This document shows, piece after piece, positions 14,801 to 35,155 of a DNA stretch of 64,000 nt. The translations under genes and the position numbers were made by a program. How positions within the stretch are numbered: position 1 is the stretch's first letter; each line of letters opens with the position of its first letter. Under the pieces are notes generated by a model. That model saw nothing but the letters and a program-made list of their open reading frames with translations, had not been told where the DNA came from and did not search any database. Source of the DNA: a virus (lineage: Duplodnaviria; Caudoviricetes); IMG/VR virus record IMGVR_UViG_3300032303_002965, positions 2,315-66,314 of that record. One strand, 5' to 3'.

Positions 14801-17800
14801 TATGTTGCCAATAAGACAAGCTGTTATGAGTACTTATGGTAAATATGTTGGTCCTGCTGGATCATTAACTCAAATGGTCAGACCAACAATTTCTGGAACT
14901 TCATTAGCTGGAGGAGTGTCTGATCAATCAAGCGCCCAATTACAAAGAGCTATAGATAAAATTACAAGAAGTTTTGATAAAGGATCTTTAGATGTAGATC
15001 AAGCTACAAAACAAATTTCAAATAGATTACAGTCATATACTGGCGTAGCTGGAAAAAAACTAGCAGAAGCTGAAACTTCAATAAGTAAAACATTAGCAGC
15101 TAGACAAGAGGTATCTTCTAAAGGTTTTATTGGGTCTGCTATTGGTGGAATCAGTAATTTAAATACAAAATTTGAAAATACAACATTTGGTAAAATAAGT
15201 AAAGGTTTAGAATCAAAAGCCTTAGTAGCATCTTTTGCTGCACCAATAGTTGCAGAAACAATTGGAAATTTCATACCTGGTGGACAAACATCTCGTGGAG
15301 GTAGAACTGTTTCTGCAGCAGCTTCTGGAATTGGAGATATTGCATCTTATGCTTCTATTGGTAGTCTTTTTGGACCAATCGGGACAGCTGTAGGAGGAAT
15401 AGTTGGTACAATAAGTGCAGGTACTAAAGTTTGGTCAGCATTTAATGATAAAACAATAGACTATACTTTAAGTTTAGATACTGCAAAACAAAAATTAAAT
15501 GATATGACCTTCGCTGTGCAGAATATTAATTCTGCAACAGAAAATTTAGATCGTTTTCAAGCTGGAGATTTTGGAGGAGTTAAAGATCCAAAAACACAAG
15601 CAGAATTAATTGCTAAAGAAAATGAAAAACTTGCAGAAGGCTTATCTAAATTAGATAAGTCTGTACGAGATCAATATTTAGCGTTTGTTAAAGAAGGAAA
15701 TAAACCTGAAGCACAAGCAATTTTAAACATGGCGTTAGGAAAAGCTCAACAAGAAGCTATAAATCGACAATCCGTTTTAACTTTAGCTCAATTAGAAAAA
15801 GATAAGGTATTTAAACAACTTGGTCAGGGCGGAATTCAAGGTTTAGCAGCAGAATCTCAAGTAAAAAGTGCAATAGAACCATTATTTAAAGACCTTTCGT
15901 TAGAGCAATTAAAATTAATTAAAGAAACCAATAGTAAAGACAGTTTAAAAACAGCAATAGAGTCTGCTTTACCAAAAATTCCCCCAGAACTTAGAGATCA
16001 ATTAGTTCAATTACTATCTAATAATCGTCAATTATTAGATGGAGTAATAAATATCAAAGAAATCGCACGAACAATTAATCAAGATCAAAAATCTGGCAAG
16101 CCAATTGGTCCACAATCATTATCAGATATACAAAGAATTTTAAGTGCAGCAGTAACAACTGGAAAACCTTTAGATTTAACTGGATTTAACGCAAAAGGAA
16201 TTTTAGAATCTCCAGAGATAACAAAAGCCAAACAAGATGAAGCAATTAAATCTACAACAGATGCAATTATGGCTTTTGGATTAGAGACAAATGACACATC
16301 AAAAGCTACTCAAATGATAACAGATTATCTCCAACGAGCAACAATTATTATTAATGATTTTAATTCTGGATTGATCAGCGCAACAGAAAAAGAAAAACGA
16401 TTAGGAGCAATTAAAGAAGATATTTTATTAAAAGAACAAGCAAAATCTTTAACATCTAAAGATATCGCTTCAAGAAAAATGGAGTCACGTAATGCCCAAG
16501 GTATTTTTCAACCTGTCCAATCTTTTATGGATAGTTTTGGCGAAAATGGTCAAACAACTGTTGAAAGATTAAATCAATCTTTTTCTAGTCTTGCAGAGAA
16601 TATACAAACTGGATTTGAAGATGCATTTGGCGCATTTGTTGATGGAACAAAGACAGCAGATGAAGCTTTCCAAAGTATGTTATTAAATATATCTCAACAA
16701 ATTATCAAAGAACAATTTAGTATAGGAATGAGAAGTTTACTTGGTGGATTAACAGGTGGAGGTGGATATGGTGGAACATCAGATAATGGTAGTGGTTTAT
16801 TAGGAGGAATATTTAATTCTATTTTTGGTGGAATGGGTAAAGCAAAGGGTGGTATAATTAAAAAATATAGTTATGGTGGTCATGTTCAAGGTGGAAGTGG
16901 AGTTCGTGATGATGTACCAGCTATGTTGACAGGTGGAGAATATGTTTTAAGAAAAAATGCTGTTAATAAATATGGCAAAGGCATGCTAGATATGTTGAAT
17001 CGTGGAGGTATGGTTAGAGGTTATGCTGGAGGAGGATCAGTATCTAGTACATTAGCTAATCAATACGATCTTTATGGTCCAGGAGGAGATCTTCTTATGG
17101 GAGGATATACTCCAGAAGCATTTAAAAGAACTATTACTGGTCCAGAACAATTAGGTAATGTTCCTGATATCAAAGGAGTATTTAATATATCAGATATGTT
17201 AAGCTCAAGAGCTATAACTGATGAAAATAATCCAATGAATCAGTTAAGAACTGAAAAATTTAATGAATTACTTGGTTACCAACAAAATGTATCAAGTTTT
17301 AAAACTAGTTATAACGAAAGTATGCGTCAAGTTGAAGAGCAAAGAAAACAAGCTCAAGAAGAAGCAGATAGAATTAATGCTGCAAATCAATCTGCTTATA
17401 ATCGCCAAGTAACTCAAGGTTTTATAGGAGGTTTACTTAGTGTGGGGTTAAGTGCATTTGGTGCGGCTGGTGGTATTGGAGGATTACTTGGTGGAACATT
17501 TGGTAATGCTATTGGAGGAGCTGCTACTGGAGGAGCTGCTGCTTCTGGAGGAATATTTAGCGCTGCTGGAATTGGATCAATATTTCAAGGTGTTGGAGAA
17601 AGACTTATTAATCCAATTATGGGTCTTTTTGGTGGAGGAGGTGGACAAACAACTGTAGGAATGAATCCATATCAACAAAAAGAATTTCAAAAAAGCTTAA
17701 CACAAAGTATTCAAGGCAGTATAAATAATTATTCTGTTACATCTCCAGGATTAGGAGCACTTGGAGCTCCTGGATACGGCGGATATGGTTTTGGTATGGG

Positions 17801-20276: not shown

Positions 20277-23200
20277 TTATTGATGTTGAAATACAAAGGT
20301 TTGCTCTTTTTGATCACCACTTTTATCTATAATGACTACCCTTATAGCAAAAGTTTGTTGATTTTTAACCCATTCATTGTATTTATTAATTATATCTTGA
20401 TATAATTGGCTATTTTTATTAGAATAATTAAATGTAGGCAAATATAGTTGAATTGGATATTCTTTAACTATTTCATTGAACATATGTTGCTCAATAATAT
20501 CTGAACCAGCCCATTCATTAGAGCTAATGCTTAAATTATTAGTTTGTTTCATAAATATTAATATTTTATGAATAGTTACTTCATGTTCTGGATAAAAAGC
20601 TAAAATTAAATGTAAATATTGATCTTGACGGGTTGGTTTTTGATATGTATAAAGGTGATTTGTTAAACTATAAGATTTTGTATCAAAAAACCAACTGGTA
20701 GAACCTAAAACTTGTTTTTTTGCTTCTATAATTTTACCATAATCTAAAAATTCATTACTTTGATTTGCTATGTATCTACTTAAAATATAAAATTGATTTT
20801 TTGGTGCTCTTGAATTAATAACATCATTTTGAGATGCACAACAACTTTTCACGCAATCTGTTCCATTTGATATTTTCAATAAATCTGGTGGACATTGTTT
20901 TATAGCAACAAATTCATTTTTTGTAAGATTAGAGCATAATAAATAAAAATCACCAAAATCTGGTTCATCTTCTAAATCTTTTACTATTTTCATCTTAGTT
21001 GGATATACAATAAAAGATATCATTTTTTTAGAATCTACAATATTTTTTGCATCAATTTGTTCTCCATTTAATATAGGATCATTTTCAATTCCACAAGAAG
21101 ATATAAATTTTGCTATAAAATAGTGATAATTTATTCCATTAATTTCTTTAATTCCTTTTTCTAATATAGAATCTGTACCAGATATGCCTTGAACTATAAA
21201 GTCTTCTGCATCTGGAATATCTAAAACAAATTCAATTATTGAGTATGTATCATTTCCTTGTATACCCACACTAATTACTTTAATAGAATATATATTTTTT
21301 GATGAAAATAATTTTAAATCATTTCCAATATTTTTAAAATCTGGTGTTGATGGAGATTCTTGATCTCCAATATTTCCTGGATCATATACCCCTAAAAACG
21401 AAGGATTTGGAACATAAATACCAGTAGGAACATCTTCTGGATAATCATTTATTGGATCTAATACAGAAGATCCATATTTATAACTATCTAAACATCTATA
21501 TGTAGATCTATATTTATTATCACTAGGATATCCGCCAGTAATTAAAGCTTGAGATCTTGGAAAATAGTTAAAAAATTGTGGACCAAATGCGATGCCATCT
21601 TTATAAAAATCAAGCATTCTGGCTCCTTGATTATTTAAATTATTTTTAACATAATCACTATCTGGCCAAGAAATATAAGAATAACTTTCTGGAGTAAAGA
21701 AATAGACTATTCCTTGATAACTAGCTGCTATAGTAGATTCATAATTTTCTCTTTTTTTAATAAATTTATTTAAATATATATACTTATCTATAAGAGATGT
21801 ATTTTCTAAAAATCCAAGAATATGATTATTTGTATAAGATGATGGTACATAATTTAAATAAAAATTTAAAGCTGATGTTTCCAAACGATTTAAATAATAT
21901 AATTTAACACGAAATATATTGTCATTACATAAAATACTATTTTTATTTAAATACGTTTTTAATGTATAATTTAATCCAATTTGATTATCAGAAACAGTCA
22001 ATGAATGATTTTTACTTTGTTCTGCTAATAGAGAAGCTTGAGATAAATTATCTATAAGAATAGCAACATCTTGATATTTTTGCTGATTAGAGTCATTTAT
22101 GTTATTTGTATATTTTTCTGGAAATAAAATAATTCCATCAATTAATTCATCTTCTGGAAGTCCATTTTTAAATTCAAAAACTATTCCATTATCGCCTTCT
22201 CTATAGTAATTTTTAAATAATTCTTTTATTCTTTCTTCATTTATTTGTTTATGATTTATTTTAAATATTTTATATCCATTTTCATTTGAATAATTATTTA
22301 ATACTGAACCTCCAGTAATTAAATCGTTTATATTTCCTCCTGCAGAAGAATTTCCTAAATGATCTATTGCTTCTATAACAGTATAATAATTATTATAATA
22401 TCCGATATCATATACTGGAATATAACTTTTCATTTCTTGATTTGATATCCCAGTTCTTAAAAGCTGACCGCTTATAAATTCACCTTGACTTTGCAAATCT
22501 TGATTATAAATAAAACTTCCATCATTATATTGGCCTTCAATATATTTAATATGTTTATTACCATAAGCTAGAAAATTTTCATCATAATTTAATGATGTAT
22601 ACCTACTATTAATCGAAGGAATTTGTTCATCATTTTGATTATAAATTGTTGTTATATTTTCTGTAGGTTCAAAAATTGAAAATTCATTAACAGTTAAATG
22701 TGGACTATTTCTTAGTCTAATATCATTATCTGTTTTTCTTAATGATGTTGAATCTAAAAATAAATTATTATTATCATTATAAATAAATCTATCTACAAAA
22801 TTTATAGTTGTATCTAAATATGATTGAAAATTAAAAGTTTTTACTTCTGGCGTATATTTTCTAACTTCTTCGGAAGATTCAGCAATAAAATCATATTCCC
22901 AACCAAATATAGTTTTATCTGTAGTTAAGGATATTTCATTTCCAGTAGCATAAACCATTTTGCCAGATACGCCATCATAATAATTTATATTTTTTATATT
23001 TATTTCTTTTATGAAATTTTGTTGTTCTATTTTTCCTGTTACTAAAAGTCCTGTAGATTCATAACCCAAAGGACTTTCTGTAAAAATAGCAATTTCATAA
23101 AATCCTTCCGTTTTAGGAACATAATAATAATATTGCTCTTGTTTAGAATATGGTATACTGTTTATTAAATAATTTGTTTCATTAGAGTTAGGTCTTGTGG

Positions 23201-23351
23201 ATATTGTATATTCTTTTGCGTAAAAATTATATTTTTTAATATCGCCAGTATTTGATATAGGATTAATTTTAAATCTAAATCCCTTAATAAATTTTGTTAC
23301 ATTTATTAAATCTGATTCTATATTTGGATCTGGTGGATAAAATAATGACAT
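20277..23351 (-). CDS. Tail-tip associated protein (1024 aa), possible continuation of J
   Basis: Starts 1 nt after the J stop. FN3-like N-terminus (GFRFKINP...YYYYVPKTEGFYEIAIFTESPLGYES). Confidence 0.5.
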   Translation of the reverse strand: MSLFYPPDPNIESDLINVTKFIKGFRFKINPISNTGDIKKYNFYAKEYTISTRPNSNETNYLINSIPYSKQEQYYYYVPKTEGFYEIAIFTESPLGYESTGLLVTGKIEQQNFIKEINIKNINYYDGVSGKMVYATGNEISLTTDKTIFGWEYDFIAESSEEVRKYTPEVKTFNFQSYLDTTINFVDRFIYNDNNNLFLDSTSLRKTDNDIRLRNSPHLTVNEFSIFEPTENITTIYNQNDEQIPSINSRYTSLNYDENFLAYGNKHIKYIEGQYNDGSFIYNQDLQSQGEFISGQLLRTGISNQEMKSYIPVYDIGYYNNYYTVIEAIDHLGNSSAGGNINDLITGGSVLNNYSNENGYKIFKINHKQINEERIKELFKNYYREGDNGIVFEFKNGLPEDELIDGIILFPEKYTNNINDSNQQKYQDVAILIDNLSQASLLAEQSKNHSLTVSDNQIGLNYTLKTYLNKNSILCNDNIFRVKLYYLNRLETSALNFYLNYVPSSYTNNHILGFLENTSLIDKYIYLNKFIKKRENYESTIAASYQGIVYFFTPESYSYISWPDSDYVKNNLNNQGARMLDFYKDGIAFGPQFFNYFPRSQALITGGYPSDNKYRSTYRCLDSYKYGSSVLDPINDYPEDVPTGIYVPNPSFLGVYDPGNIGDQESPSTPDFKNIGNDLKLFSSKNIYSIKVISVGIQGNDTYSIIEFVLDIPDAEDFIVQGISGTDSILEKGIKEINGINYHYFIAKFISSCGIENDPILNGEQIDAKNIVDSKKMISFIVYPTKMKIVKDLEDEPDFGDFYLLCSNLTKNEFVAIKQCPPDLLKISNGTDCVKSCCASQNDVINSRAPKNQFYILSRYIANQSNEFLDYGKIIEAKKQVLGSTSWFFDTKSYSLTNHLYTYQKPTRQDQYLHLILAFYPEHEVTIHKILIFMKQTNNLSISSNEWAGSDIIEQHMFNEIVKEYPIQLYLPTFNYSNKNSQLYQDIINKYNEWVKNQQTFAIRVVIIDKSGDQKEQTFVFQHQ

Positions 23352-23352
23352 A

Positions 23353-26300
23353 TTAAATATTATCTGTTAATGAGAACTTATCTTCATTATATTGAAGCGC
23401 AGTTATTTTATACAAATAATCCTCTTTTTCTTCTAAATCAAGAATTCTAAATTTTTGTGTTTTATCCATATATGGTTCTAGTGATGCTCCAGGATAAATT
23501 CCAGTAGTAGAAATACCACTAACACTAGGACTATTTATATAGTTATAAAAATTTGGATCTACTTCTAATGTCCAAACTGTATTTTTTAATAAAGTATGCT
23601 GACTATCATCTAGAGGAAAACTTGATAAATTAATTCTAGTAAAACCAGAGTAATTAATTCCTGTTTCTTCTGATACAAAATCAAAGAAATTTGGACCATT
23701 TAAAGATAATCCTAAATCTCTATGCTGTACTTGACTTCTTCTTAATAGATTTTCATCAATTTGATTGACTGTTGTTGTTTGTCCATTAATATTAAGTGGT
23801 ATTGATATACCACTAGTATTTTGCATATATAGTTCTGTTGCTTTATCTCCAGAAGGCGTTCCTACTTCAATATTTCCTGCAGGAGTCAATACATTAAATT
23901 TACATCCACTAATAACGTTCTTATATCCAGTAATATTTTGATATTTTAAATCTAAAACAGCATAATTTTTATTTAAATCAAGAGCTCTTCCGCCAAGAAT
24001 TTTATTTTGTCTATTTTCATCTTGCACAAGAATAACATCTCCTGGTTTTAAGTATAAAGCAGGTAAACTCGTTTCAAATATAACAATTTCTGCTTCAAGA
24101 TTTTCTGATAATAAAGTCCATCTTCCTAATCTTTCAGCTTGACCTTCACTTGTGCATCCAAAAGCAGTCACATCCATTTCTCGTATACCAAATCTAATTA
24201 AACCTTCTCTATTTTCTATGTATTTAACCGCAGGTTTAAAAAAGTTATCTTTGTTATTATAACGAACTAAAATAACGTTTCTTCTAACTCGTTTGCTTGT
24301 ATCATTATAAGTAAATTCGCCATTTTTAATATTTGAATTATTGAATAAATAAATTGGTTCTTTTGGTTTGTCTTGAGAAGTGAATATTAATCCTGCATTA
24401 TAATAAACAATTGCTCTAAAAATACTAGCCATATCATTTATTACTTTATAAGCATCTTCTCTAGTACTAATTAGAATATTACATGTAAATCTTGGTTCTA
24501 ATCCTCCTCTACCATCGCTTACTAATTGATCACAATATTTACTAATATCATATAAAGTCCATTTATCAATAAATTTAGAATTTACATATTTTCCTAATCC
24601 AAATCTATTATTCGTTACTAAATCATAAAAACACCAAGCAGGATTATCAGTCCAGCCAATTTTAAAAGTTCCATCCCAAGTTCCAGAATATGTTTTACTA
24701 AAAGGATTATAATTACTTGGAATTTTCACTTTTAATAATCTTACATCATAATATCTTTGAGGAATAGATGTAAAATATCTTGCATCAAAAGTGCTTAAAA
24801 CAGAAGCTGTATGTGGAAATATTAAACGATCTTGATAGATTTCTGTAATAGAATCTGCACCACATTCTATCAATATATTTGCATCAACAGACTCTTCATG
24901 TAATGCTTCAATTTCTACTTCCCAACCAATAGTATTTTTATCTACAATTTTATCTAATCCTAACCATTCAAAAGTTTCTATATAACCACCTTTAAGAATT
25001 TTACCTATACAATTAATTCTCCAATAATCAAAAGTTTGACCATTTTTTTGATATGTTACGGTTTCAACAACTTGTCCTTCATTATTTGTGCCACGATTTA
25101 TTTTTTTTAATTTAAGATTAAAATATGCACCAAGTCTATCTATTCTTCCACTAGTAGCATTATTTTCTGCTGAATCAAAAGACTCCCAAATAGTTAAATC
25201 AACAATAGTTTTACTTAATGCTGAAATTTTTATATGGAATCTTAATCCATAAAGATCTTGAGTTAAAATATTAAAAGATTTTTTATATGTTCTTGATGTT
25301 CCATCTTTAAATACTCTTTTACCAAAAATCCTCTGACCGATTGTTTTTGTTAAAGTCAATAATTTTGGAATTTTTGCTTCTGAAGAAACGACAGCTCCAT
25401 CATTTGAGAATATGTAAATATTTTCTAAAGGTATTCCATTTCCAATTTTTTGAGTATTTAAATCTTCACTAATATTAATTTCTTTTAAATTTTGCGCGTG
25501 AGTGTGTTGAGGAGCTTTATCTGCATTATCAAATTTTATTTTTATGAAATCAAAATTTAAAGATCCTTTTGATCCATCGCTATATGTATCATCGGCTAAT
25601 GGTGTTTCATTCCAATATATTGATCTTATAAATGAACTTATTCCTGGATATTTATTTACTTGAACACCTTTTTTTGACCAACCAATATCTCCAATTTGTG
25701 GACATTGTTCTGGATAATCTCTTCTATTATCTTCGCTACATTGATTTGGTTTAATTTCGTAATCTGTTATTCCCTCAATTGGGCCTTCACTTAATACGTC
25801 TAATACGCTAATATTTGAAAGAGTTGTAATACCAATATCTTTAGATTCTAAAAATGTATTTGTATATCTAAATCCATATCCATTTATTGTTTTTGAAGCG
25901 CCAATTTGAGATATTAGTTTATCACAATTTCCTGGTATTGCAGAGTTAACAAGAGTATAGTTATAATATTCAGGAACATATCCAAGATATCTAGCTGTTC
26001 TTTCATCTGTAACTTCTCCACCATTATAATAACCATAACCACCCATATTATGTACAAATATTCCTTCTGCAATATAAGTATGATATTTTTCTACTTCTAA
26101 ATTATAAACAGGCTCTTCTGTATCATAAATTATATCTAAAATTTTAATTTTCTTTTTGTTAAAAGTTATTAAATGATCTCCTGCTTTTAATTTCTTTAAA
26201 GGAACATATAGATTATTATCAGTTAAAAATGGATGCTCCATATTAGAACGGATAATTTTTCCATTTTCTAATAATACTTTGTATACTTTATCTGGTATCA

Positions 26301-29300
26301 AATCATGATCTAATACTTTTACAACTTTTGAAATTTGAATATTTTGATTTTCATCACATGCATATATTTTATCTTCAATTTGAAAATCTTGAATATTTTT
26401 CCATCCATTAGGAGTAAATATTTTTGTATCTTTTGGAAAACACCTTGTGCCATACTGCTTAGGAGGAACATAATGAACGCATTGATATACATCTCCTGCT
26501 CTTTGAGTATATGTGCCAACATATAAAACTATTGGAGTATAATCATATGCACTTTTTCTAATCTCTGTATTAAAAGTACAAGTATCTGCAAATCTAATAT
26601 AAAAAAGATATGTTCCTCGTGAATTTGGAATACCTAATGGATATTTTGGTAAACTAGATTTACTTAATGTTTTATTAGCTTCATTTCCTACTTTTGTTAA
26701 TGTTGCTCCTCCACCAATGGCAAAGAAATAAATTTGATATTCTGGACTTATATTCGCTCCTCCATTTATTTGTATTTGAATTGTTGGTAAATTATCAATT
26801 GGATTAGCGCTAAATGAAGTTTTAACTAAATTTGTCGCAATTAAATTTAAATCTTGATATATTGGAGTAGATACAGGTCCAAATGAATTAGGATCTGGTT
26901 TATAACATGTATTACCTAAAGCATCAACAAATGGACTAAATCCATCTGTTATAGAATATGCGCCTTCAACATTAATAGCTACTTCTGGTCTAGTTCCGTT
27001 ATTATTTAATGTATTTACTGTTGGATCTTCTACATACATCCAAAATTTACTTTCATTTGTTAAATTTGTACTTGGACGAAATTCTACAAAATCCATATCT
27101 TTACCTTTTTTATAAGTATCTGATTTATCATTTGGACTAAATGTAAAATCTCTTGTTGGTATAGTTTGAGGTCTTCCATTTCCTTTTTTTGGATCAATTA
27201 TATAAGCAGCTTCATCATTAGTTATTTTTTTAAATTCAAAAATTTCATCCCCATATGTTCTAAATTTAATTGATATTATATTTTTTCCTATATTTTCAGT
27301 AGATGCAACTGGTAATTTTATGCTTAAAGGAAAGGCATTCCCAACAGATGCATCATTATATGAATATGGCGCGACATTAAATACTATGTATATATCATCA
27401 CTTTTGCCTTGAGTATTTGCTGCACAAACTTTTAATATTCCTCTACCTGCATGATTTAATTTACCTGTTAATTTACAAGTTGATGCATTAAAAGTTAATC
27501 CATTAAAAAATGAATTAGAGGGAAATGAAGATATATTATAGAATTTTTTTTCATCTGCTTCTTTTCCATCCATATTAGTAAAATTTGCCAAAGAAAGATC
27601 TACAGCATTACTTGTTGATTTCGCAGATGGATCAAATGTATAATTATAAATATAAGAAGGAGCATCTATAACTGGTTTAGATTTTAATTTTTTATTTGAA
27701 GATTGCTCTCCAGAAACTATTAAAAGTTTAAAAGTTATTTCCTGTCCACGACTACGATCATCATTATATATTATAAAATCAACAAGACTTCCATTAACTT
27801 CATTTTGAATATCATCAGAAATTAAACCACTTATACTTTGATCATCATCGTTATATGTTAAACCTAATTTATTTAAAATATCTTTTGTTGTTTCCGATAG
27901 TTCTATGTACCATGGACCATTTTTAATATTAGTTTTAAATTGATAATAAGATAATTGTCCTTTAAAGGCCACTAAAATTGGAGAACTAGTAACAAAAATT
28001 GGATCATTATCTAATGAATCTTTTACAACTATTGTTGTACTTTGTTGAGAATATAAAGGTTTTGTGTTACTTAAAGTAGTTGAAATTATGTTTCCAGTAT
28101 AGTAACCTACTTTTAATATTTGTTTTTTAGTTAAATAACTAAGTGTTGATATAGGATTAAATTCATTAAATTTTAACAAATCATTAGGGGCAACATTAAC
28201 ATCACTACTTTCTTTAAAACCAATAAATCCATTATATTCATATTTTACAGCCAATGAATTTGTAATCACTTGAGAAGCAAAATTTAATTTAGCTTTTGTA
28301 TTACTTCCTCCAATTGTATATGGAGCAATTATATCATCTTCAATTATAAAACTTCTTTTATCTATTATGCTTTTAATTTTTGCATATCTTGAAGATAAAA
28401 GACCATCCTTTGGATCAAAATATATAGAAGAAGATGTATCTTTTGATAAATAATCTGCCGCATTTAAAATACTTATATTTTTATCACTTATTGTTGTAGG
28501 TACATTATATATTGTTTTAATTATTTCTGCTGTACCACTTGTAGTTCCTTTTTTTATGTTTGAAATCCTAAATGTATTATTTGTTAGATAAGTAATCTCA
28601 TAAGTACCATTACCTATTGTTGGTGTACCTGTTTTAAATCTTATATAAACTTTATCACCATTTGATAAATTATGATTATTTAATGTAAAATCTATATATG
28701 TTGCTGCAGGTTGATTATAAGTTATATTATTAAATTCAATATTTTTTCCAGAGATTTTTCTTAAAAAATTTACATTAGAATTATTTGTAAAATGAAAAAT
28801 ATATAAATTTTTAGAATTATCTTCTGCTAAAGCTGAAGGTCTATTTAATTTTAAAGATCTTGTTGATGATATATATACATTTCCAGAAGTTACTTGAGAT
28901 ACTGTTGATCCTACTGTAAATCTATTTCCATCTAGAATACTTAAAATAAGATAATAATCACTTTTTGCTGAACCATTAATAAATTGTAAAAATATCTCAG
29001 TTCCAATGTCATTTCTATCTTTATTTTGAACATAACCATGATTATTAATCGTTAAAGTAATTGTTTGTCCATTTTGTGCATATGATCCATATGCGTTATT
29101 AGTTATGTTAAAACTATTACTTGATTCTTGACCTTTACCAACAAATGTAGTCACTTCTTTTGTATTTAAATTTAATTTTCTAATACAATGATTTTTTCTA
29201 TCAGCTATAAAAATTCCTGTATGATTATTGAAAGATAAACTTCCACTTTCTGTACATAAACTTACTGGATAATTAAACCTAGCACTTGACCCTGTGTGAT

Positions 29301-30546
29301 CTAAATAATTTGGTTGGCAAGCTGTTCCAGCAATAGTACTAACAGGAAAATTTAAATTTGGATTTAAATCTATTACTCTAATAGTATGATTATTTGTATC
29401 TGCAATATATAATCCTGTTCCATTTGCTAACGTTAATCCTCTTGGAAAATGAAATCTAGCTCCTGTGCCATTAATAGCATCTCCTGTTCCAAATTCTCCT
29501 GCTTTTCCAGCTATTGTTGTAACTTGACCTGCTACGCCAGATAAAGTAATTCTACGAATAGTATGATTTTCTGTATCTGCAATATATAAATTATTTCCAC
29601 TATAATCAATAATAACGCTATTAGGTTTATTAAATCTAGCATTAGTTTGTACACCATCATTTGACCCAGATTCTTCTGATAAACCAGCTAAAATAGTTGT
29701 ATCAGTTCTATAATATAAAACATTTGAAATTGTTTGTGTTGTTTGAGTTATTTTACAAATTCTATGATTATTTGTATCTGCAACATAAATACTATTATCT
29801 CCAGTTTTTATACAAATTCCTCTTGGATGATTAAAAGCTGTTGTACTTGATGTCCAAGCGCGAGTATTTGATCTTACATATGTTGAGCCTACCCCTGTAC
29901 CAATAAGTCCATTATATCCAGCAAAAATAAATGGAGTATCATTTTTATTTAATTTATATATTAAATTAGATTCTGGAGATGTATAATATCCAACTCCATT
30001 TTGATCAAAACAAATTCCCAAAATATTGTTTTCTTCAAGATAGAGATTATGATTTTTATAACCTATATTATCTGTATCTTTTGTTGTTATAATTATATCT
30101 TTAGAACCAGAATTTTTAATATATTCTGCTTGTATTAAGCCAACTAAATTTCCATCACCATCATATTTACTTACATCGGGTGATAAATTTGTATAATCTA
30201 TATGAAAATTAGAAATTTTAGCTGTAGTTACAGTATCATTTGGAGTACCAAATGCAGTCATTCCTTTTGTAAAATCCCATATAAACCAAAAACCCGCATT
30301 TCTATCTATACCTCTTATATAAGCTGGTTCATTTTGAACTTTTGCTAATCCTGCTCCTGGACTTGCTGTAAAAATTGGATTATAGGCGTCAACCATATCA
30401 GCAACATTAGCTGAGATGCCTAAATCAGTAGGTTCTCCAATATCATTATAAGAATATATATTAGAAAAATCATGTCCATTAGCGCCTCTCCATGCTATTC
30501 CGTCAATATATTTATTTGGATCGCAATTTTTACATTTTCTCGCCAT
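23353..30546 (-). CDS. Central tail tip / host-specificity protein J-like (2397 aa), with NHL and Ig-like front end and a Hint domain
   Basis: J motifs VLDVLSEGPIEG, TDNPAWCFYDL.TN.RFGLG, EPRFTCN, GCTSEGQA.R.GRW.L..E and PGDVI.V.D. NHL repeats (FNHPRGI..., IYVADT.NH.IR). Confidence 0.9.
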   Translation of the reverse strand: MARKCKNCDPNKYIDGIAWRGANGHDFSNIYSYNDIGEPTDLGISANVADMVDAYNPIFTASPGAGLAKVQNEPAYIRGIDRNAGFWFIWDFTKGMTAFGTPNDTVTTAKISNFHIDYTNLSPDVSKYDGDGNLVGLIQAEYIKNSGSKDIIITTKDTDNIGYKNHNLYLEENNILGICFDQNGVGYYTSPESNLIYKLNKNDTPFIFAGYNGLIGTGVGSTYVRSNTRAWTSSTTAFNHPRGICIKTGDNSIYVADTNNHRICKITQTTQTISNVLYYRTDTTILAGLSEESGSNDGVQTNARFNKPNSVIIDYSGNNLYIADTENHTIRRITLSGVAGQVTTIAGKAGEFGTGDAINGTGARFHFPRGLTLANGTGLYIADTNNHTIRVIDLNPNLNFPVSTIAGTACQPNYLDHTGSSARFNYPVSLCTESGSLSFNNHTGIFIADRKNHCIRKLNLNTKEVTTFVGKGQESSNSFNITNNAYGSYAQNGQTITLTINNHGYVQNKDRNDIGTEIFLQFINGSAKSDYYLILSILDGNRFTVGSTVSQVTSGNVYISSTRSLKLNRPSALAEDNSKNLYIFHFTNNSNVNFLRKISGKNIEFNNITYNQPAATYIDFTLNNHNLSNGDKVYIRFKTGTPTIGNGTYEITYLTNNTFRISNIKKGTTSGTAEIIKTIYNVPTTISDKNISILNAADYLSKDTSSSIYFDPKDGLLSSRYAKIKSIIDKRSFIIEDDIIAPYTIGGSNTKAKLNFASQVITNSLAVKYEYNGFIGFKESSDVNVAPNDLLKFNEFNPISTLSYLTKKQILKVGYYTGNIISTTLSNTKPLYSQQSTTIVVKDSLDNDPIFVTSSPILVAFKGQLSYYQFKTNIKNGPWYIELSETTKDILNKLGLTYNDDDQSISGLISDDIQNEVNGSLVDFIIYNDDRSRGQEITFKLLIVSGEQSSNKKLKSKPVIDAPSYIYNYTFDPSAKSTSNAVDLSLANFTNMDGKEADEKKFYNISSFPSNSFFNGLTFNASTCKLTGKLNHAGRGILKVCAANTQGKSDDIYIVFNVAPYSYNDASVGNAFPLSIKLPVASTENIGKNIISIKFRTYGDEIFEFKKITNDEAAYIIDPKKGNGRPQTIPTRDFTFSPNDKSDTYKKGKDMDFVEFRPSTNLTNESKFWMYVEDPTVNTLNNNGTRPEVAINVEGAYSITDGFSPFVDALGNTCYKPDPNSFGPVSTPIYQDLNLIATNLVKTSFSANPIDNLPTIQIQINGGANISPEYQIYFFAIGGGATLTKVGNEANKTLSKSSLPKYPLGIPNSRGTYLFYIRFADTCTFNTEIRKSAYDYTPIVLYVGTYTQRAGDVYQCVHYVPPKQYGTRCFPKDTKIFTPNGWKNIQDFQIEDKIYACDENQNIQISKVVKVLDHDLIPDKVYKVLLENGKIIRSNMEHPFLTDNNLYVPLKKLKAGDHLITFNKKKIKILDIIYDTEEPVYNLEVEKYHTYIAEGIFVHNMGGYGYYNGGEVTDERTARYLGYVPEYYNYTLVNSAIPGNCDKLISQIGASKTINGYGFRYTNTFLESKDIGITTLSNISVLDVLSEGPIEGITDYEIKPNQCSEDNRRDYPEQCPQIGDIGWSKKGVQVNKYPGISSFIRSIYWNETPLADDTYSDGSKGSLNFDFIKIKFDNADKAPQHTHAQNLKEINISEDLNTQKIGNGIPLENIYIFSNDGAVVSSEAKIPKLLTLTKTIGQRIFGKRVFKDGTSRTYKKSFNILTQDLYGLRFHIKISALSKTIVDLTIWESFDSAENNATSGRIDRLGAYFNLKLKKINRGTNNEGQVVETVTYQKNGQTFDYWRINCIGKILKGGYIETFEWLGLDKIVDKNTIGWEVEIEALHEESVDANILIECGADSITEIYQDRLIFPHTASVLSTFDARYFTSIPQRYYDVRLLKVKIPSNYNPFSKTYSGTWDGTFKIGWTDNPAWCFYDLVTNNRFGLGKYVNSKFIDKWTLYDISKYCDQLVSDGRGGLEPRFTCNILISTREDAYKVINDMASIFRAIVYYNAGLIFTSQDKPKEPIYLFNNSNIKNGEFTYNDTSKRVRRNVILVRYNNKDNFFKPAVKYIENREGLIRFGIREMDVTAFGCTSEGQAERLGRWTLLSENLEAEIVIFETSLPALYLKPGDVILVQDENRQNKILGGRALDLNKNYAVLDLKYQNITGYKNVISGCKFNVLTPAGNIEVGTPSGDKATELYMQNTSGISIPLNINGQTTTVNQIDENLLRRSQVQHRDLGLSLNGPNFFDFVSEETGINYSGFTRINLSSFPLDDSQHTLLKNTVWTLEVDPNFYNYINSPSVSGISTTGIYPGASLEPYMDKTQKFRILDLEEKEDYLYKITALQYNEDKFSLTDNI
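26047..26442 (-). other. Hint domain (mini-intein / bacterial intein-like), 132 aa
   Basis: CFPKDTKIFTPNG (block A), SNMEHPF (block B, TxxH variant), VYNLEVEKYHTYIAEGIFVHN (blocks F/G). The +1 residue is Met; no endonuclease domain. Confidence 0.92.
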
Positions 30547-30547
30547 T

Positions 30548-31432
30548 TTATTTACTTCCTAATGAACTTCTTTCTAATGAATTTCCAACAATATCTCTAA
30601 GTTGTAAAGCTTTGCCTTTTAGATCGAATGTATAACTTTGTCCTGGGAAATTTCTTTGCCCCGCGTCTGCTGGTGGAGATCCGTTTGAATAAATATTAGT
30701 TCTAGATTGAATACGATATAATTGATCATAAGAAGAAAATACTTGATGGCTTCCAATAATCAATCTACCATATCCAATTGGAACAGGTCCACCCTCTCCT
30801 TGAGTATTGACTGGACCATTAAATAAATAAGATGGTTCTCCACCTTGACTAGGAGACGCTTCAAAATCTGCAGAAGGATTAGCTATACTTTGCGGACTCA
30901 CCATAGGAGGTGGTTTCATCATTAACATAGATACTCCTAAAGCTAACAAACCTATAATTGCTGGAATTGCAATGCTTAATCCTATCCCAGGAGCAAATAT
31001 TCCAACTACTAACGCTAAAAATATAGCAAAAAATCCTTTACCACCACTTTTGCCTCCTCCACCTTTAGATCCACCACTTTTGCCTCCTCCACCACCACCA
31101 CCAGCTCCTTCAATAATAGGAACAACATCTATTGTTTGCAGCCCATTACTAAAATTCATAAAAGCTTCTGATTTATATAAATTTTCAATATGTTCTTTTT
31201 TTAAATCTTGATATTTTTCTGGAAGTTTTTCAAAGTCAGGCATCCAAAGGTCTCTTTGATTTATTAGTATTTCATATTTTGCATCTTCTTCTACTTTGCT
31301 TATAAAATATTTAGTAAATTTACCAGTATTTACATCAATAGCTTGAAAAGCTTCTGCAACGCTATCAACTTGTAAATTCCATTCTTTACCAAGTTTTTCG
31401 CCTATATCACCATGTAATCTAACCTTTACCAT
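30548..31432 (-). CDS. Tail assembly protein I-like
   Basis: MVKVRLHGDIG...W.L.V.SVAEA..AI; IDVVP.IEG; PSYLFNGPVNT..EGGPVPIGYGRL.IGS. Confidence 0.88.
   Translation of the reverse strand: MVKVRLHGDIGEKLGKEWNLQVDSVAEAFQAIDVNTGKFTKYFISKVEEDAKYEILINQRDLWMPDFEKLPEKYQDLKKEHIENLYKSEAFMNFSNGLQTIDVVPIIEGAGGGGGGGKSGGSKGGGGKSGGKGFFAIFLALVVGIFAPGIGLSIAIPAIIGLLALGVSMLMMKPPPMVSPQSIANPSADFEASPSQGGEPSYLFNGPVNTQGEGGPVPIGYGRLIIGSHQVFSSYDQLYRIQSRTNIYSNGSPPADAGQRNFPGQSYTFDLKGKALQLRDIVGNSLERSSLGSK
31041..31093. repeat. 23-bp direct repeat with 30-bp period, encoding a GGGGKSGG linker
   Basis: CCACCACTTTTGCCTCCTCCACC at 31041-31063 and 31071-31093. Confidence 0.85.
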
Positions 31433-31433
31433 A

Positions 31434-32183
31434 TTAAACCTTGCTCCTATGCCTTAAAATATATGATGTATATTTTTTCAGCAAATTATCATATATAGTT
31501 ACACAAGAAAAAGAATTATAAGGTTGATGCAAAATCGTGTCATTTTCGAGATAAATAGCACAATGAGATGGGTATTCTTCTGATATATTTGGATATGTAA
31601 CCATAATTCCATCATATTTTTTTAATTTAGTATTTTTATCTAACTGCAAAAATCCCTGCTCTTCAAAATTATTATGATATACTCCTTTAATATCTTTTAA
31701 AGATTTAGGATATGACATTCCATCTGGAAACCAAATATTAATTCCTGCTTCATTTTTTAAATAATCTTGGACTAAACTGAAACAATCTGAAATTTGAGTT
31801 ATATATGGTCTACCAATATAATTATTCTTTTTTGTATTTGCATAGTAAATATTAAATTTATCATATTTAATATTATAAAGAACATATATTAAATTATTTT
31901 TATTACTATTTATTTTATCAAATTCACTAAATTCAATATTTTCATCTATATGAGAATGATAACAACCTATTATTTTATAATTTAAAGAGCATTTTAAGTA
32001 TTCTCGTGGAGAAATTTCAAAAAAATTATTCTTATTTTTTGCTATATTTTTAGAAGGATATATATCAAATTCATATTTTTTTTCATCAAAAAATATTAAA
32101 CCACAAGATTCTTCAATTTTATTTTTTAAACATTCTTTTTTTATTTGATATTTAATTTTTTTATCAAATTCTATGTTATTCAT
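31434..32183 (-). CDS. Tail assembly protein K-like (JAB/MPN + NlpC/P60)
   Basis: EESCGLI...YHSH...FSEFD (JAB metal motif); DCFSLV.DY...HCAIYL (NlpC/P60 Cys and His). Confidence 0.9.
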   Translation of the reverse strand: MNNIEFDKKIKYQIKKECLKNKIEESCGLIFFDEKKYEFDIYPSKNIAKNKNNFFEISPREYLKCSLNYKIIGCYHSHIDENIEFSEFDKINSNKNNLIYVLYNIKYDKFNIYYANTKKNNYIGRPYITQISDCFSLVQDYLKNEAGINIWFPDGMSYPKSLKDIKGVYHNNFEEQGFLQLDKNTKLKKYDGIMVTYPNISEEYPSHCAIYLENDTILHQPYNSFSCVTIYDNLLKKYTSYILRHRSKV

Positions 32184-32189
32184 TTAAAA

Positions 32190-34601
32190 TTATTCTTGTG
32201 CTTGTTGAGAATTATATTTACCTTGTACAGATGGAAATCCTCCAAAAGGCAAAATTCCAATTAATTGATTTCCATCTACATCTAATGGAGCTTGAACTGT
32301 TTCTTTAAAAATTAGATCTCTTGATTCTACAAGACTTAAATTTTGACTTGATATTCCTGTGAATATTCCTACTCCAGAAATTTTTGATTCAGGAAAATTT
32401 GGATTATTTTTCCATCTTAATCTACAACCATTTAATGTTTTAGAACATGTATCAGCAATCCAATATCCAGTATTTGGAGGAGCATTTAAAGAACTTGGTT
32501 GATGATTAGTTCTGCAAACAAAATAATAGTTAATATAATTTTTTTGAACATATACAAAATCACCAATGTTATATCCTGTAGCATTAATTGACCAATATTC
32601 TTTATCTTTTAATTCTGTAAGTCCAGCGAAATGATATTCAAGGTTATGAATTGAATTTTCTAATTTTAAAAATGTTTTATCATTTTCATCTGCGACAGGT
32701 GGTGCGAATTTTATTCCTTTTGCTTTTTGATATTCTTCAATTGGAGTAACTGACATTGAACTATTTTCAGATGTTGACCGATTACAATTTCCAATTACTT
32801 CTCCATAAATTCCAGAATGAATTTTAGTTAATCTTCCTGGTTTAACATTTGTTGAACCATATTCATATAAACATCCTTCTCCTCTATATGCAAATGGACA
32901 ATTTTTAGATAATAATAATCTTGAAGGCAACTTTACTCCTTCTACATCAAGCAGAGAGGCAAGATCATAAGTAATACTAGATTTATCCTCTTGAGCTTTT
33001 CTATCAATATAGTAAATATCTGGAGTTAGTTCTAATTCATTAGCAAAAATATTTCTTACATCAATATTTAATATATCTCCTCCTAAATTGTTTACTGTAT
33101 TGAATATTTGGGGTACGCCACTAGGAATTCCTTCTTCAATGATATAATCTGTCATTAAAATTTGATAGTATTGAGTATTTAATGGAGTATTTAAATTACC
33201 AGTATTATAGCATGTTAATTTTAATCCTGTAGAAGAAATATTAGATACTTTATAATTAAAGAATTCATTATTTCCATTAGATTGAGCGTTAAAAATAATT
33301 TTTGGATTTGTATTAAAAGAAATTGGCAAAGTTATATTAATATCTCCAGAAGTTGCTGCACCAAAATTATAATTATTTTTTAAACTAACAAAATTTACTG
33401 TTTCTTTAGAAACAGGATTTAATCCTGTAAAAAAACCTGTATTAATTGATAATGCAAATAAATCTACTGGATTTTTAATAGATTCAGAAAATAAAATTTC
33501 TGCGCCAGTATAATCTGCAGAAATGAATTTACTATAAGAAAAATCTTTTAAATTTTCAAATCTTTCTCTAATTGATATAAAATGATTTAATTCTCCAGAG
33601 TTTAAACCAATATTTGTTTCAAAAGAAATGCTTTCTATATTAGAAGATTCTGTAACTAAATTTTTTCCAGAAATATATTTTTTGTTTACTACATATTTTA
33701 AATAATTATTATCATATATATTTTTTAAATAATTATTATTGGTGAAAAAATAATTAATATTTGATTTTTTTGCATCAAATATAAAAACATTAGAAGAGAA
33801 TATTTCGTTTAAATTCAGAGCATTATTAAGGTCATTTGAATAAGTTAATTTAAAATGATCTGAAGAATTTGTATAAAAATTTTGTTTTATTCCTCCATAA
33901 ATTTCTAAACCATCATCTGTTTTTGGTGAAGTAAAAATCGCTTTATTACTTACGTCTGCAAAATTAGAAGCTAAAGATATTTCTGGATAATATATTGCCC
34001 ATACTAATGAATTTGTTGGAATGTTTTTAGTTGTTCTAACAGAAAGAACATCTCCATCTCTAGAAGCCCAAGGTACATCAATTAAATCTTGAAAAGGATT
34101 AACTCCTCCAACAAAATTATCTCCAGGCAAATATCTAGCAAATGTTTTTCTTCTAGTTACTTTCGCGCCAGCAAGATCTTTTAATTCATTTATTTGCATT
34201 CTTAAATATTTAAAAAATGAATTATATTCATCATCTAAAAATTGACTTGATATTTTTAATTTTGGAGCAGGAATTGTTCCATTAGAAGTTATATCAAATT
34301 GTTCACCATAAACTGGAAATGGAAAATAATAATTAGGACTACCATCTATATCTTTACCAAAAATAATGATTCCTCGATTTATATTGAATAAATTAAAATC
34401 ATTATGAATTCGTAGAATACCTTTTTTAATTGGACCAGAAAGATTACCATAATCTTTAGTGGCAGGTTTTATATCTGTTAAATCTATTTCAAATAAGTAA
34501 ATTGGAGTTGATGGTTCAAGAGAATGAATATGAGTATTTATATCTCTTTGAGATTCTAATAATTGTATAAAATATTCTTCGGGTGAAATTATATCAGGCA
34601 T
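32190..34601 (-). CDS. Minor tail protein L-like, enlarged (803 aa)
   Basis: GAKVTRRKTFARYL..NF; IYYIDRK; LP.R....NCPF.YRGEGC.Y; D.CSK.L.GC.LR (four conserved Cys); LPFGGFP. Confidence 0.9.
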   Translation of the reverse strand: MPDIISPEEYFIQLLESQRDINTHIHSLEPSTPIYLFEIDLTDIKPATKDYGNLSGPIKKGILRIHNDFNLFNINRGIIIFGKDIDGSPNYYFPFPVYGEQFDITSNGTIPAPKLKISSQFLDDEYNSFFKYLRMQINELKDLAGAKVTRRKTFARYLPGDNFVGGVNPFQDLIDVPWASRDGDVLSVRTTKNIPTNSLVWAIYYPEISLASNFADVSNKAIFTSPKTDDGLEIYGGIKQNFYTNSSDHFKLTYSNDLNNALNLNEIFSSNVFIFDAKKSNINYFFTNNNYLKNIYDNNYLKYVVNKKYISGKNLVTESSNIESISFETNIGLNSGELNHFISIRERFENLKDFSYSKFISADYTGAEILFSESIKNPVDLFALSINTGFFTGLNPVSKETVNFVSLKNNYNFGAATSGDINITLPISFNTNPKIIFNAQSNGNNEFFNYKVSNISSTGLKLTCYNTGNLNTPLNTQYYQILMTDYIIEEGIPSGVPQIFNTVNNLGGDILNIDVRNIFANELELTPDIYYIDRKAQEDKSSITYDLASLLDVEGVKLPSRLLLSKNCPFAYRGEGCLYEYGSTNVKPGRLTKIHSGIYGEVIGNCNRSTSENSSMSVTPIEEYQKAKGIKFAPPVADENDKTFLKLENSIHNLEYHFAGLTELKDKEYWSINATGYNIGDFVYVQKNYINYYFVCRTNHQPSSLNAPPNTGYWIADTCSKTLNGCRLRWKNNPNFPESKISGVGIFTGISSQNLSLVESRDLIFKETVQAPLDVDGNQLIGILPFGGFPSVQGKYNSQQAQE

Positions 34602-34606
34602 ATAAA

Positions 34607-35155
34607 TTAACCAGATGTCTCTTCGAATTTAGCTTTAATACCATAGTTATCTTTAAAAGCAAAATTTGTTTCCCATTCTCTACAAACATATCTTGTTTTG
34701 TAAGTTGTATCAGCGTAAATATTGGGTGGACTATATGCAAAAGATTTTTTTGCTCCTTTTTCTATTAAAAAATGTAAAATAGCTTTTGCTTCTTGCTCTG
34801 TTCTTTGATCAAAATTGAACTGTAATGTTTTTAAATCTGAATTTAAACTTTGAGTAATTCTTTGCTCATAACCATTTCCAAATCTAATGGTTTTAACATC
34901 TGGTTTATGTTGAATAGTTGAAGTATAAGAAGGAGTCCATACAAATAAAGGTAATTTTAATCCATTTTGTAATGTGGTCACGCCACCCCAATAAATTGCT
35001 CCATTTGCTGTATCAGGTTCATTTTCTGACGCTTTTACATGGTCTTGTAATGAATACCAAAAATATCCATGATATTTAATTACTTCATGTTTTGCAATAA
35101 AAGTGCCTATATTAATGACGCTCCAATTAAGGATATTATCGTATACTGATGCCAT
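34607..35155 (-). CDS. Minor tail protein M-like with a short N-terminal extension
   Basis: PDVKTIRFGNGYEQRI..SLN...L.F.FD.R...EA..I..FL....AKKSF.Y.PP. Confidence 0.88.
   Translation of the reverse strand: MASVYDNILNWSVINIGTFIAKHEVIKYHGYFWYSLQDHVKASENEPDTANGAIYWGGVTTLQNGLKLPLFVWTPSYTSTIQHKPDVKTIRFGNGYEQRITQSLNSDLKTLQFNFDQRTEQEAKAILHFLIEKGAKKSFAYSPPNIYADTTYKTRYVCREWETNFAFKDNYGIKAKFEETSG

Follow-up and report, generated by a model that had tools for sequence, protein, structure and literature searches.

A-type bacterial intein-like domains (BILs), which were reportedly described by Amitai in 2003 and Dassa in 2004, are the closest described counterparts of the element considered here, a 132-amino-acid (aa) Hint domain within the J-like tail-tip protein of an uncultured freshwater phage (Duplodnaviria; Caudoviricetes). 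The protein is encoded in a stretch of 64,000 nucleotides (nt), in the following called the window (positions 2,315 to 66,314 of IMG/VR record IMGVR_UViG_3300032303_002965). Like these domains, for one of which a structure is solved (2LWY), the window Hint has a mini-Hint fold with Cys1, a block-B His and a terminal His-Asn, has no nucleophile at position +1 and no endonuclease, and divides a variable region from the remainder of a protein exposed at the surface. However, its host is a phage tail-tip hub, and it sits at an exact gene-fusion seam, of which split, fused and Hint-fused natural alleles coexist. Thus placed, the Hint appears to be the element through which the phage joined a formerly separate accessory protein to the tail-tip hub J. 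The chemistry expected for A-type BILs is cleavage together with some aminolytic splicing (PMC4031507).

The best Pfam model for the domain is Pretoxin-HINT (PF07591; PT-HINT), with 46.1 bits for the whole protein and 51.7 bits for the domain compared to a cut-off of 27.7. Pretoxin-HINT domains are predicted to release a downstream module by autoproteolysis, but here the downstream part is an 897-aa structural J protein (TipJ/Phage-tail_3) rather than a toxin, and no toxin or immunity-gene context was found around the window Hint. BIL2 of the Tetrahymena BUBL system (PDB 6Y75, 6TMM) is related in fold and sequence, and the gpI proteins of relatives of the phage follow the same order of ubiquitin-like domain, Gly run and Hint; by contrast, no ubiquitin-like domain precedes the Hint at J, and gpI of the window is Hint-less. 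Hedgehog-type (Hog) domains are C-terminal, carry a sterol- or adduct-recognition region and lack His-Asn cleavage, whereas the window Hint ends with His-Asn and is followed by J. A self-cleaving module in phage adhesion proteins is represented by the Peptidase_S74 chaperone domains of tailspikes and fibres, which differ by their fold, their Ser-Lys dyad chemistry and their C-terminal position, and are released after trimerisation; none was present among the family-model matches of the J open reading frame (ORF). Canonical mini-inteins (gp41-1, Mtu RecA, Npu DnaE) have the fold as well as blocks A, B, F and G in common with the window Hint, which, however, has no Cys, Ser or Thr at +1 and does not reside in the conserved site of a housekeeping enzyme. 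Full-text searches of the literature for BILs, Hint domains or inteins in connection with tails, tail fibres, host specificity proteins or tail tips gave no description of a Hint domain in gpJ or gpI, in agreement with a first-pass annotation of the window that was aware of no such tail-tip mechanism; the phage inteins mentioned in that literature reside in terminase, ribonucleotide reductase, helicase and dCTP deaminase. The window Hint is an A-type BIL/PT-HINT domain in a new structural context.

The Hint Domain of the J-Like Protein

Translation of the ORF confirmed the domain at residues 1369-1500 (exact span 26047-26442), where the first-pass annotation had placed it together with Cys1, the block-B His, the terminal His-Asn and Met at +1. 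The segment reads CFPKD ... SNMEHPF ... VYNLEVEKYHTYIAEGIFVHN (end GIFVHN) and continues with MGGYG. Its membership in the Hint/BIL families was borne out by profile searches, in which the excised domain matched PT-HINT (1.5e-13) and Intein_splicing (6.8e-13) in Pfam as well as intein_Nterm (3.8e-8) and intein_Cterm (1.7e-9) in NCBIfam, all above the gathering cut-offs, while no endonuclease family of either collection matched the 132 aa, as had been proposed. Among solved structures, the best match by sequence profile is the A-type BIL of Clostridium thermocellum (2LWY, 3.5e-20; best intein 9.7e-17), with which the window Hint has the C-terminal motifs VYN...H.Y...VHN in common. An AlphaFold2 model based on a 15-sequence alignment reached a mean predicted local distance difference test score (pLDDT) of 97.3, and Foldseek aligned it with probability 1.00 and template modelling (TM) scores of 0.83-0.89 to mini-inteins, 2LWY and BUBL BIL2. 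Blocks A, B, F and G are recognisable; block F contains an Asn where splicing inteins usually have Asp. Since the Hint fold, Cys1, block-B His, C-terminal His-Asn, non-nucleophilic +1 residue and missing endonuclease are the hallmarks of A-type BILs, the segment can, judged by its sequence, be assigned as a complete Hint of the A-type BIL/PT-HINT kind. No compositional sign of a recent acquisition was seen, the guanine-plus-cytosine content of the Hint (0.23-0.27) being like that of its flanks.

When residues 1250-1700 were used as a database query, 13 further J-like proteins of 1334-2402 aa were retrieved, with a Hint at the same relative place. In addition, 80 IMG/VR loci fetched via gpI, together with loci from an exact protein look-up, were scanned with home-made hidden Markov models (related proteins are given below with P numbers, IMG/VR and contig loci with L numbers). 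None of ~40 diverged copies departs from Cys1, the block-B His or the terminal His-Asn, and the invariant positions of the 15-sequence alignment, whose copies are 41-54% identical to the window Hint, include C1, H70, H131 and N132. The +1 residues of the J Hints in the 13 relatives are I, I, R, M, R, R, G, R, G, G, I, G and G. Homologues with Cys, Ser or Thr at this position had been named as evidence that would speak against self-cleavage; none was present in 14 + 18 J copies (M, I, R or G) or ~18 gpI copies (G). The -1 residue is often R, as at the C-termini of the split accessory proteins discussed below, and the +1 position is often occupied by G or MG. The ratio of non-synonymous to synonymous substitution in the Hint is 0.08-0.40 (Nei-Gojobori, five pairs), which lies between the values of the upstream domain and of the J core and is similar to the flanks. 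The Hint is maintained by selection.

As anticipated, the Hint lies between a front end that varies and a J that stays constant. Identity to the relatives is 16-19% in the middle of the front end (outside the P0002 pair), 46-52% in the Hint and ~60% in J. Within the N-extein, conservation is seen at both ends, over the N-terminal ~150 aa (MARKCKNCDPNK...) and the last ~130 aa, while the middle is variable. The NHL repeats proposed for the front end were recovered (NHL 2.8e-21), but no family model confirmed the proposed Ig-like domains in this ORF; relatives carry He_PIG. For the first 175 aa of the accessory module, which are conserved, AlphaFold gave an unusable model (pLDDT 38.5). The C-extein of 897 aa, beginning MGGYG, is the predicted J core, matching lambda_TipJ with 2.4e-75 and Phage-tail_3 with 4.8e-16 (residues 2028-2182).

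Separate Genes, Plain Fusions and Hint-Bridged Fusions

Among shorter proteins, those most closely related to the J part are P0030-32, which are free-standing, complete J proteins of 971-983 aa (~50% identity), whose N-termini (MG..., then Y.Y..N..LTSSS.P.NC) align with the residues just past the Hint. On their contigs the gene order is M, L, K, I, an accessory gene encoding 689-698 aa, and J, which has its own ribosome-binding site after the accessory gene. The split accessory gene starts with MPKKCKDCDPNKFIEG and its counterpart in the window ORF with MARKCKNCDPNKYIDG, the shared start being MPKKCKDCDPNK. Its product ends with ...GTYTPRAGDVYVCNFVGYR-stop (also ...GDVYVCNFVGYR-stop) at the N-border of the Hint, where in the window the pre-Hint end ...GTYTQRAGDVYQC...YGTR abuts Cys1. 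Because the ends of the split genes coincide with the Hint borders, the N-extein and the C-extein correspond to two separate, adjacent proteins in sister phages, which supports the earlier idea of a polyprotein, and the Hint appears to replace the "stop, spacer, start" of the split-gene phages. A +1 Met-Gly is found in the window, P0005 and L007; with free-standing relatives starting MG..., the +1 Met is probably left over from the start codon that J had when it was a gene of its own.

An internal translation start at Met1501 was also considered, but the candidate is weak, consisting of just GAAGGA ~15 nt upstream, which is imposed by the A-E-G codons of the Hint.

A third state of the seam is seen in P0015 (1744 aa). 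On either side of the seam it is 90% and 96% identical to the Hint-bearing P0010 (1872 aa), but the 131-aa Hint is missing. Both proteins have the same N-border and differ in the ~15-aa linker after the Hint, which suggests that a cassette was exchanged by recombination, not that the Hint was cleanly deleted. At least seven changes between the three seam states are required on a maximum-likelihood tree of the J core (36 sequences), where, for example, the split P0032 is sister to the Hint-fused P0006, P0009 and L018. Since the three states interconvert among sisters, one-chain and two-chain tail tips are both viable and the seam allele turns over quickly. The J protein of L003 (P0033) was discarded as a free-standing example, since one frameshift makes a fused, Hint-less gene look split; the frameshift (L003:9040-9520) sits in an A-rich stretch of a Logan contig and probably stems from misassembly.

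A Second Hint Site in gpI

In close relatives, gpI has ~435-455 aa compared to 294 aa in the window, and carries a Hint of the same family within its Gly-rich linker (e.g. L001:6608-7930, L003:5455-6771, L086:8638-9999). The order is ubiquitin-like N-domain, ...EG(A/S)GGGGG, Hint, GGGGKG... and C-terminal part. Only two members of the set of close relatives, the window, where the linker is cleanly Hint-less, and the P0013 contig, have a gpI without a Hint, and both have a Hint in J. Since the gpI Hints group in a single clade that excludes those of J (SH-aLRT, the Shimodaira-Hasegawa-like approximate likelihood-ratio test, 99), the two sites are old and independent, and the idea that the Hint recently moved between gpI and J of one genome was rejected. 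Likewise, a rule of exactly one Hint per tail-tip module does not hold, as eight distinct relatives have Hints in both gpI and J; for at least one Hint per module, 0 of ~21 phages lack both, yet with p ~0.2 under independence no claim is made. In phage lambda, cryo-EM resolved gpI as ordered only in its C-terminal part, a plug inside the tip lumen (PMC11101478, PMC10721106). The JAB peptidase of gpK was predicted to cut gpI at exactly this glycine linker (Iyer et al., 2006; PMC1779556). With split genes at the J seam and the predicted gpK cut in the gpI linker, both Hint sites are therefore places where a chain break exists or is predicted in related phages.

The Wider Hint Family

A profile search of 1.84 billion representative proteins yielded 9969 matches at E <= 1e-10. 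The nearest were mostly proteins with 3-5 tandem Hints, and among the matches listed Lys occupies the +1 position in 181 domains, with Cys, Ser or Thr in a minority. In the tandem-Hint proteins (P0153-P0159, P0166, P0172 and others) 2-5 residues lie between the domains, each of which ends with VHN followed by Lys, and a Pfam partner was present in two of them only (Tim44-like, or subtilase/PKD). Related Hints with a non-nucleophilic +1 residue (Q, N, G) interrupt alpha-2-macroglobulin-family proteins (P0024, P0025, P0028), one of them labelled Patescibacteria. Four distant J proteins (P0175, P0206, P0233, P0283) carry one or two N-terminal Hints behind a 20-33-aa leader ending with GAGGG, and this leader is similar to the final strand and the Gly stretch in the ubiquitin-like domain of gpI. 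These proteins could be remnants of gpI-J fusions.

Possible Mechanism and Alternative Explanations

The residues for the first step (thioester formation) and the third step (Asn cyclisation) of the Hint reaction are present and conserved, while the nucleophile of the second step is absent. On balance it is rather probable that the window Hint is an active, endonuclease-free autoprocessing domain of the A-type BIL/PT-HINT kind at the seam of the accessory-J fusion, which mainly cleaves, with some amine-mediated splicing possible. In such a reaction Cys1369, helped by the block-B His1438, would convert the peptide bond between Arg1368 and Cys1369 into a thioester, whereas Asn1500, aided by His1499, would independently cyclise and break the Asn1500-Met1501 bond, releasing the 897-aa J with an N-terminus (MGG...) like that of free-standing J proteins. 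Because a canonical branched intermediate could not form without Cys, Ser or Thr at +1, the thioester would be resolved mainly by hydrolysis, which would free the 1368-aa accessory module to stay on the tip non-covalently, as it must in split-gene phages. The new alpha-amine may religate a small fraction (BIL-type splicing), which would yield the fused form produced directly by Hint-less relatives. Two observations fit cleavage, namely the resemblance of the predicted new ends to the native ends of the split proteins and the frequent G or MG at +1. The fold, the motifs with their conservation, the location at the seam and the range of seam types among sister phages are shown; that this chemistry takes place, and in what ratio its products arise, is inferred.

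Several points weigh against this explanation. Thr67 of block B is kept in the other 14 of the 15 aligned copies and is Asn only in the window, which might weaken the thioester step and could shift this copy toward C-terminal cleavage only. With the number of seam-state changes on the J tree, the Hint could also be a nearly neutral passenger. Apart from P0015, Hint-less in-frame fusions of the same two parts occur in P0018-23, L015-17, L022, L024 and L025, so that cleavage is not required for tail-tip assembly; this weakens the first-pass proposal, the P0015 fusion being 90-95% identical to its Hint-bearing counterpart. Hints at unrelated positions had been expected to count against self-processing as well: the J copies do share the seam position, but the gpI linker, with the same type of Hint, comes close to such an unrelated position, albeit in a separate lineage. 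Finally, the expectation that type-A domains without a +1 nucleophile mainly cleave stands in so far as the Hint is of the non-splicing type, but A-type BILs can also splice without this nucleophile when the freed alpha-amine attacks the thioester, so cleavage alone cannot be concluded from the sequence (PMC4031507).

BIL-type splicing could even be the main outcome, the Hint being excised by attack of the alpha-amine on the Cys1 thioester to give a 2265-aa fusion, in which case it would be an insertion in a flexible linker that is tolerated, selfish or neutral. The Hint-less fused allele so close to P0010, the frequent turnover of seam alleles, the additional sites in the Gly linker of gpI and the N-terminal poly-Gly of distant J proteins, and the unhindered amine of the frequent Gly at +1 agree with this explanation, as does the documented aminolysis by A-type BILs; yet cleavage products dominate for the A-type BILs tested (PMC4031507). 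Moreover, the split-gene alleles indicate that both parts also function as separate polypeptides, no homing endonuclease is present to explain a spread, the gpI and J Hints are old separate lineages, and the residues at +1 (Met) and -1 (Arg) in the window are both bulky. Splicing as the main outcome is accordingly a serious but considerably less probable alternative. A ligation resembling that of hedgehog or BUBL, which the first-pass annotation had also raised, seems improbable. Here the Cys1 thioester would be attacked by an outside nucleophile, such as a Lys of another tail protein or a cell-envelope molecule, and the front end would become covalently attached elsewhere. The likeness in structure and sequence to BUBL BIL2, which forms isopeptides with Lys without ATP (PMC8616854), the BUBL-like layout of gpI in relatives and the dominance of Lys at +1 among the matches listed for the wider family point in this direction. 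However, no adduct-recognition region follows the Hint, no Lys is near +1 in the window J, an acceptor is not evident in the sequence, and the Hint-less and split alleles lack such chemistry at the seam. By analogy, one may also imagine that the thioester serves ATP-independent covalent coupling in tip assembly, by which the accessory module would be attached to a Lys or amine of a neighbouring tip protein and the ubiquitin-like domain of gpI in relatives likewise, but this is a long shot.

A catalytically silent Hint retained as a structural spacer is very improbable: although the Asn in place of Thr in block B of the window copy would suit it, and purifying selection alone is no proof of catalysis, the invariance of the catalytic residues in ~40 diverged copies is hard to explain for a spacer, and the Hint-less alleles need none. 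Least credible is a canonical class-1 mini-intein with standard four-step splicing, for which the matches to the intein N- and C-terminal models and to mini-intein structures could be cited, as well as the contiguous, "empty" P0015 allele, although the downstream linker also differs between the alleles; yet the site is a variable gene-fusion seam rather than a conserved enzyme site, block F deviates from that of splicing inteins, and the absence of the +1 nucleophile in every copy led us to discard this candidate.

Genomic Context of the Tail-Tip Module

The J ORF closes an M-L-K-I-J block in which the gpM, gpL, gpK and gpI homologues lie upstream on the same strand (Table 1); the versions of these tail genes in relatives are labelled Phage_min_tail, Phage_tail_L and Prok-JAB/NlpC_P60 in Pfam. 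The J part of the ORF matches 1763 deposited phage records, and the front end and the Hint match none. A 15-kb nucleotide search against deposited phages gave no match, and a tblastn search with the Hint against 50,697 deposited phages only two weak, unrelated matches, so that this Hint is absent from the deposited phage genomes. All members of the cluster are annotated as "hypothetical protein" and originate from freshwater or other metagenomes.

Table 1. Features of the tail-tip locus in the window (positions in the window; aa, amino acids)
Feature	Position	Strand	Basis
J-like ORF (P0001), 2397 aa: accessory front end, Hint and complete J	23353..30546	-	ORF translation, Pfam, NCBIfam
N-extein, residues 1-1368: tail-tip accessory ("front-end") module, a separate 689-698-aa gene in sister phages	26443..30546	-	comparison
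NHL/teneurin-NHL beta-propeller repeats, residues ~211-392, in the variable middle of the front end	29371..29916	-	NHL 2.8e-21, TEN_NHL 2.3e-8
Conserved pre-junction domain, residues ~1230-1368, end ...GDVYQC...YGTR	26443..26859	-	split-gene accessory proteins stop here
Mini-Hint, 132 aa, residues 1369-1500, A-type-BIL/PT-HINT-like, endonuclease-free	26047..26442	-	
Cys1 codon, residue 1369, predicted thioester nucleophile, invariant in all copies	26440..26442	-	
Block B N-M-E-H, residues 1435-1438; His invariant, usual Thr is Asn in this phage	26233..26244	-	
Terminal His-Asn, residues 1499-1500, predicted site of Asn cyclisation/C-terminal cleavage, invariant	26047..26052	-	
+1 Met, residue 1501, non-nucleophile	26044..26046	-	
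C-extein, residues 1501-2397 (897 aa): complete J	23356..26046	-	
Canonical J N-terminal SEGPIEG motif, residue 1586	25771-25791	-	
Lambda TipJ model match, residues 1797-2201, with Phage-tail_3 inside	23944..25158	-	
gpI homologue, 294 aa: ubiquitin-like N-domain, Gly-rich linker, hydrophobic helices, plug domain; Hint-less	30548..31432	-	
gpK-like (249 aa), enlarged gpL-like (803 aa) and gpM-like (182 aa) genes; lambda-type tail-tip context	31434..35155	-	tail PHROG matches; relatives' Pfam labels

The gpL homologue (32190-34601, minus strand) has 803 aa (764-849 aa in relatives) compared to 232 aa in lambda, and its additional ~570 aa contain a short phrog_4199 match only. Right after J follows an ORF of 1024 aa (20277-23351, minus strand) with no PHROG match, whose size and position are kept in L003, L004, L086 and the P0013 contig (1017-1037 aa), and which is probably a further tip or fibre protein. 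The tape-measure gene (11865-20276, plus strand) converges on the M-L-K-I-J block (20277-35155, minus strand). As L086 has the same convergent layout, with a 2839-aa PhageMin_Tail gene on the opposite strand beyond the gene downstream of J, this arrangement is conserved in the phage group and is not an inversion private to the window.

Implications for Tail-Tip Assembly and Evolution

If autoprocessing occurs as proposed, this phage would build its tail tip by a post-translational route, in which two structural proteins are made as one chain and are then separated or rejoined by a Hint. With separate genes, a plain fusion and a Hint-bridged fusion at one and the same seam, a natural series is available in which the long-standing question of whether BILs chiefly cleave, splice or ligate becomes directly testable in a native context. 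Compact, endonuclease-free Hints with defined natural flanks may also serve as parts for protein engineering. The presence of a Hint in the gpI linker predicted to be cut by the JAB peptidase of gpK (PMC1779556) ties these domains to the question of what the ubiquitin-like part of gpI does, and if the ligation considered above were true, it would represent a phage-encoded, E1/E2-free ubiquitin-like conjugation or cross-linking in virion construction. More generally, neighbouring genes can apparently be turned into one polyprotein by a Hint domain and still remain functional, and this bears on the modular evolution of receptor-binding proteins.

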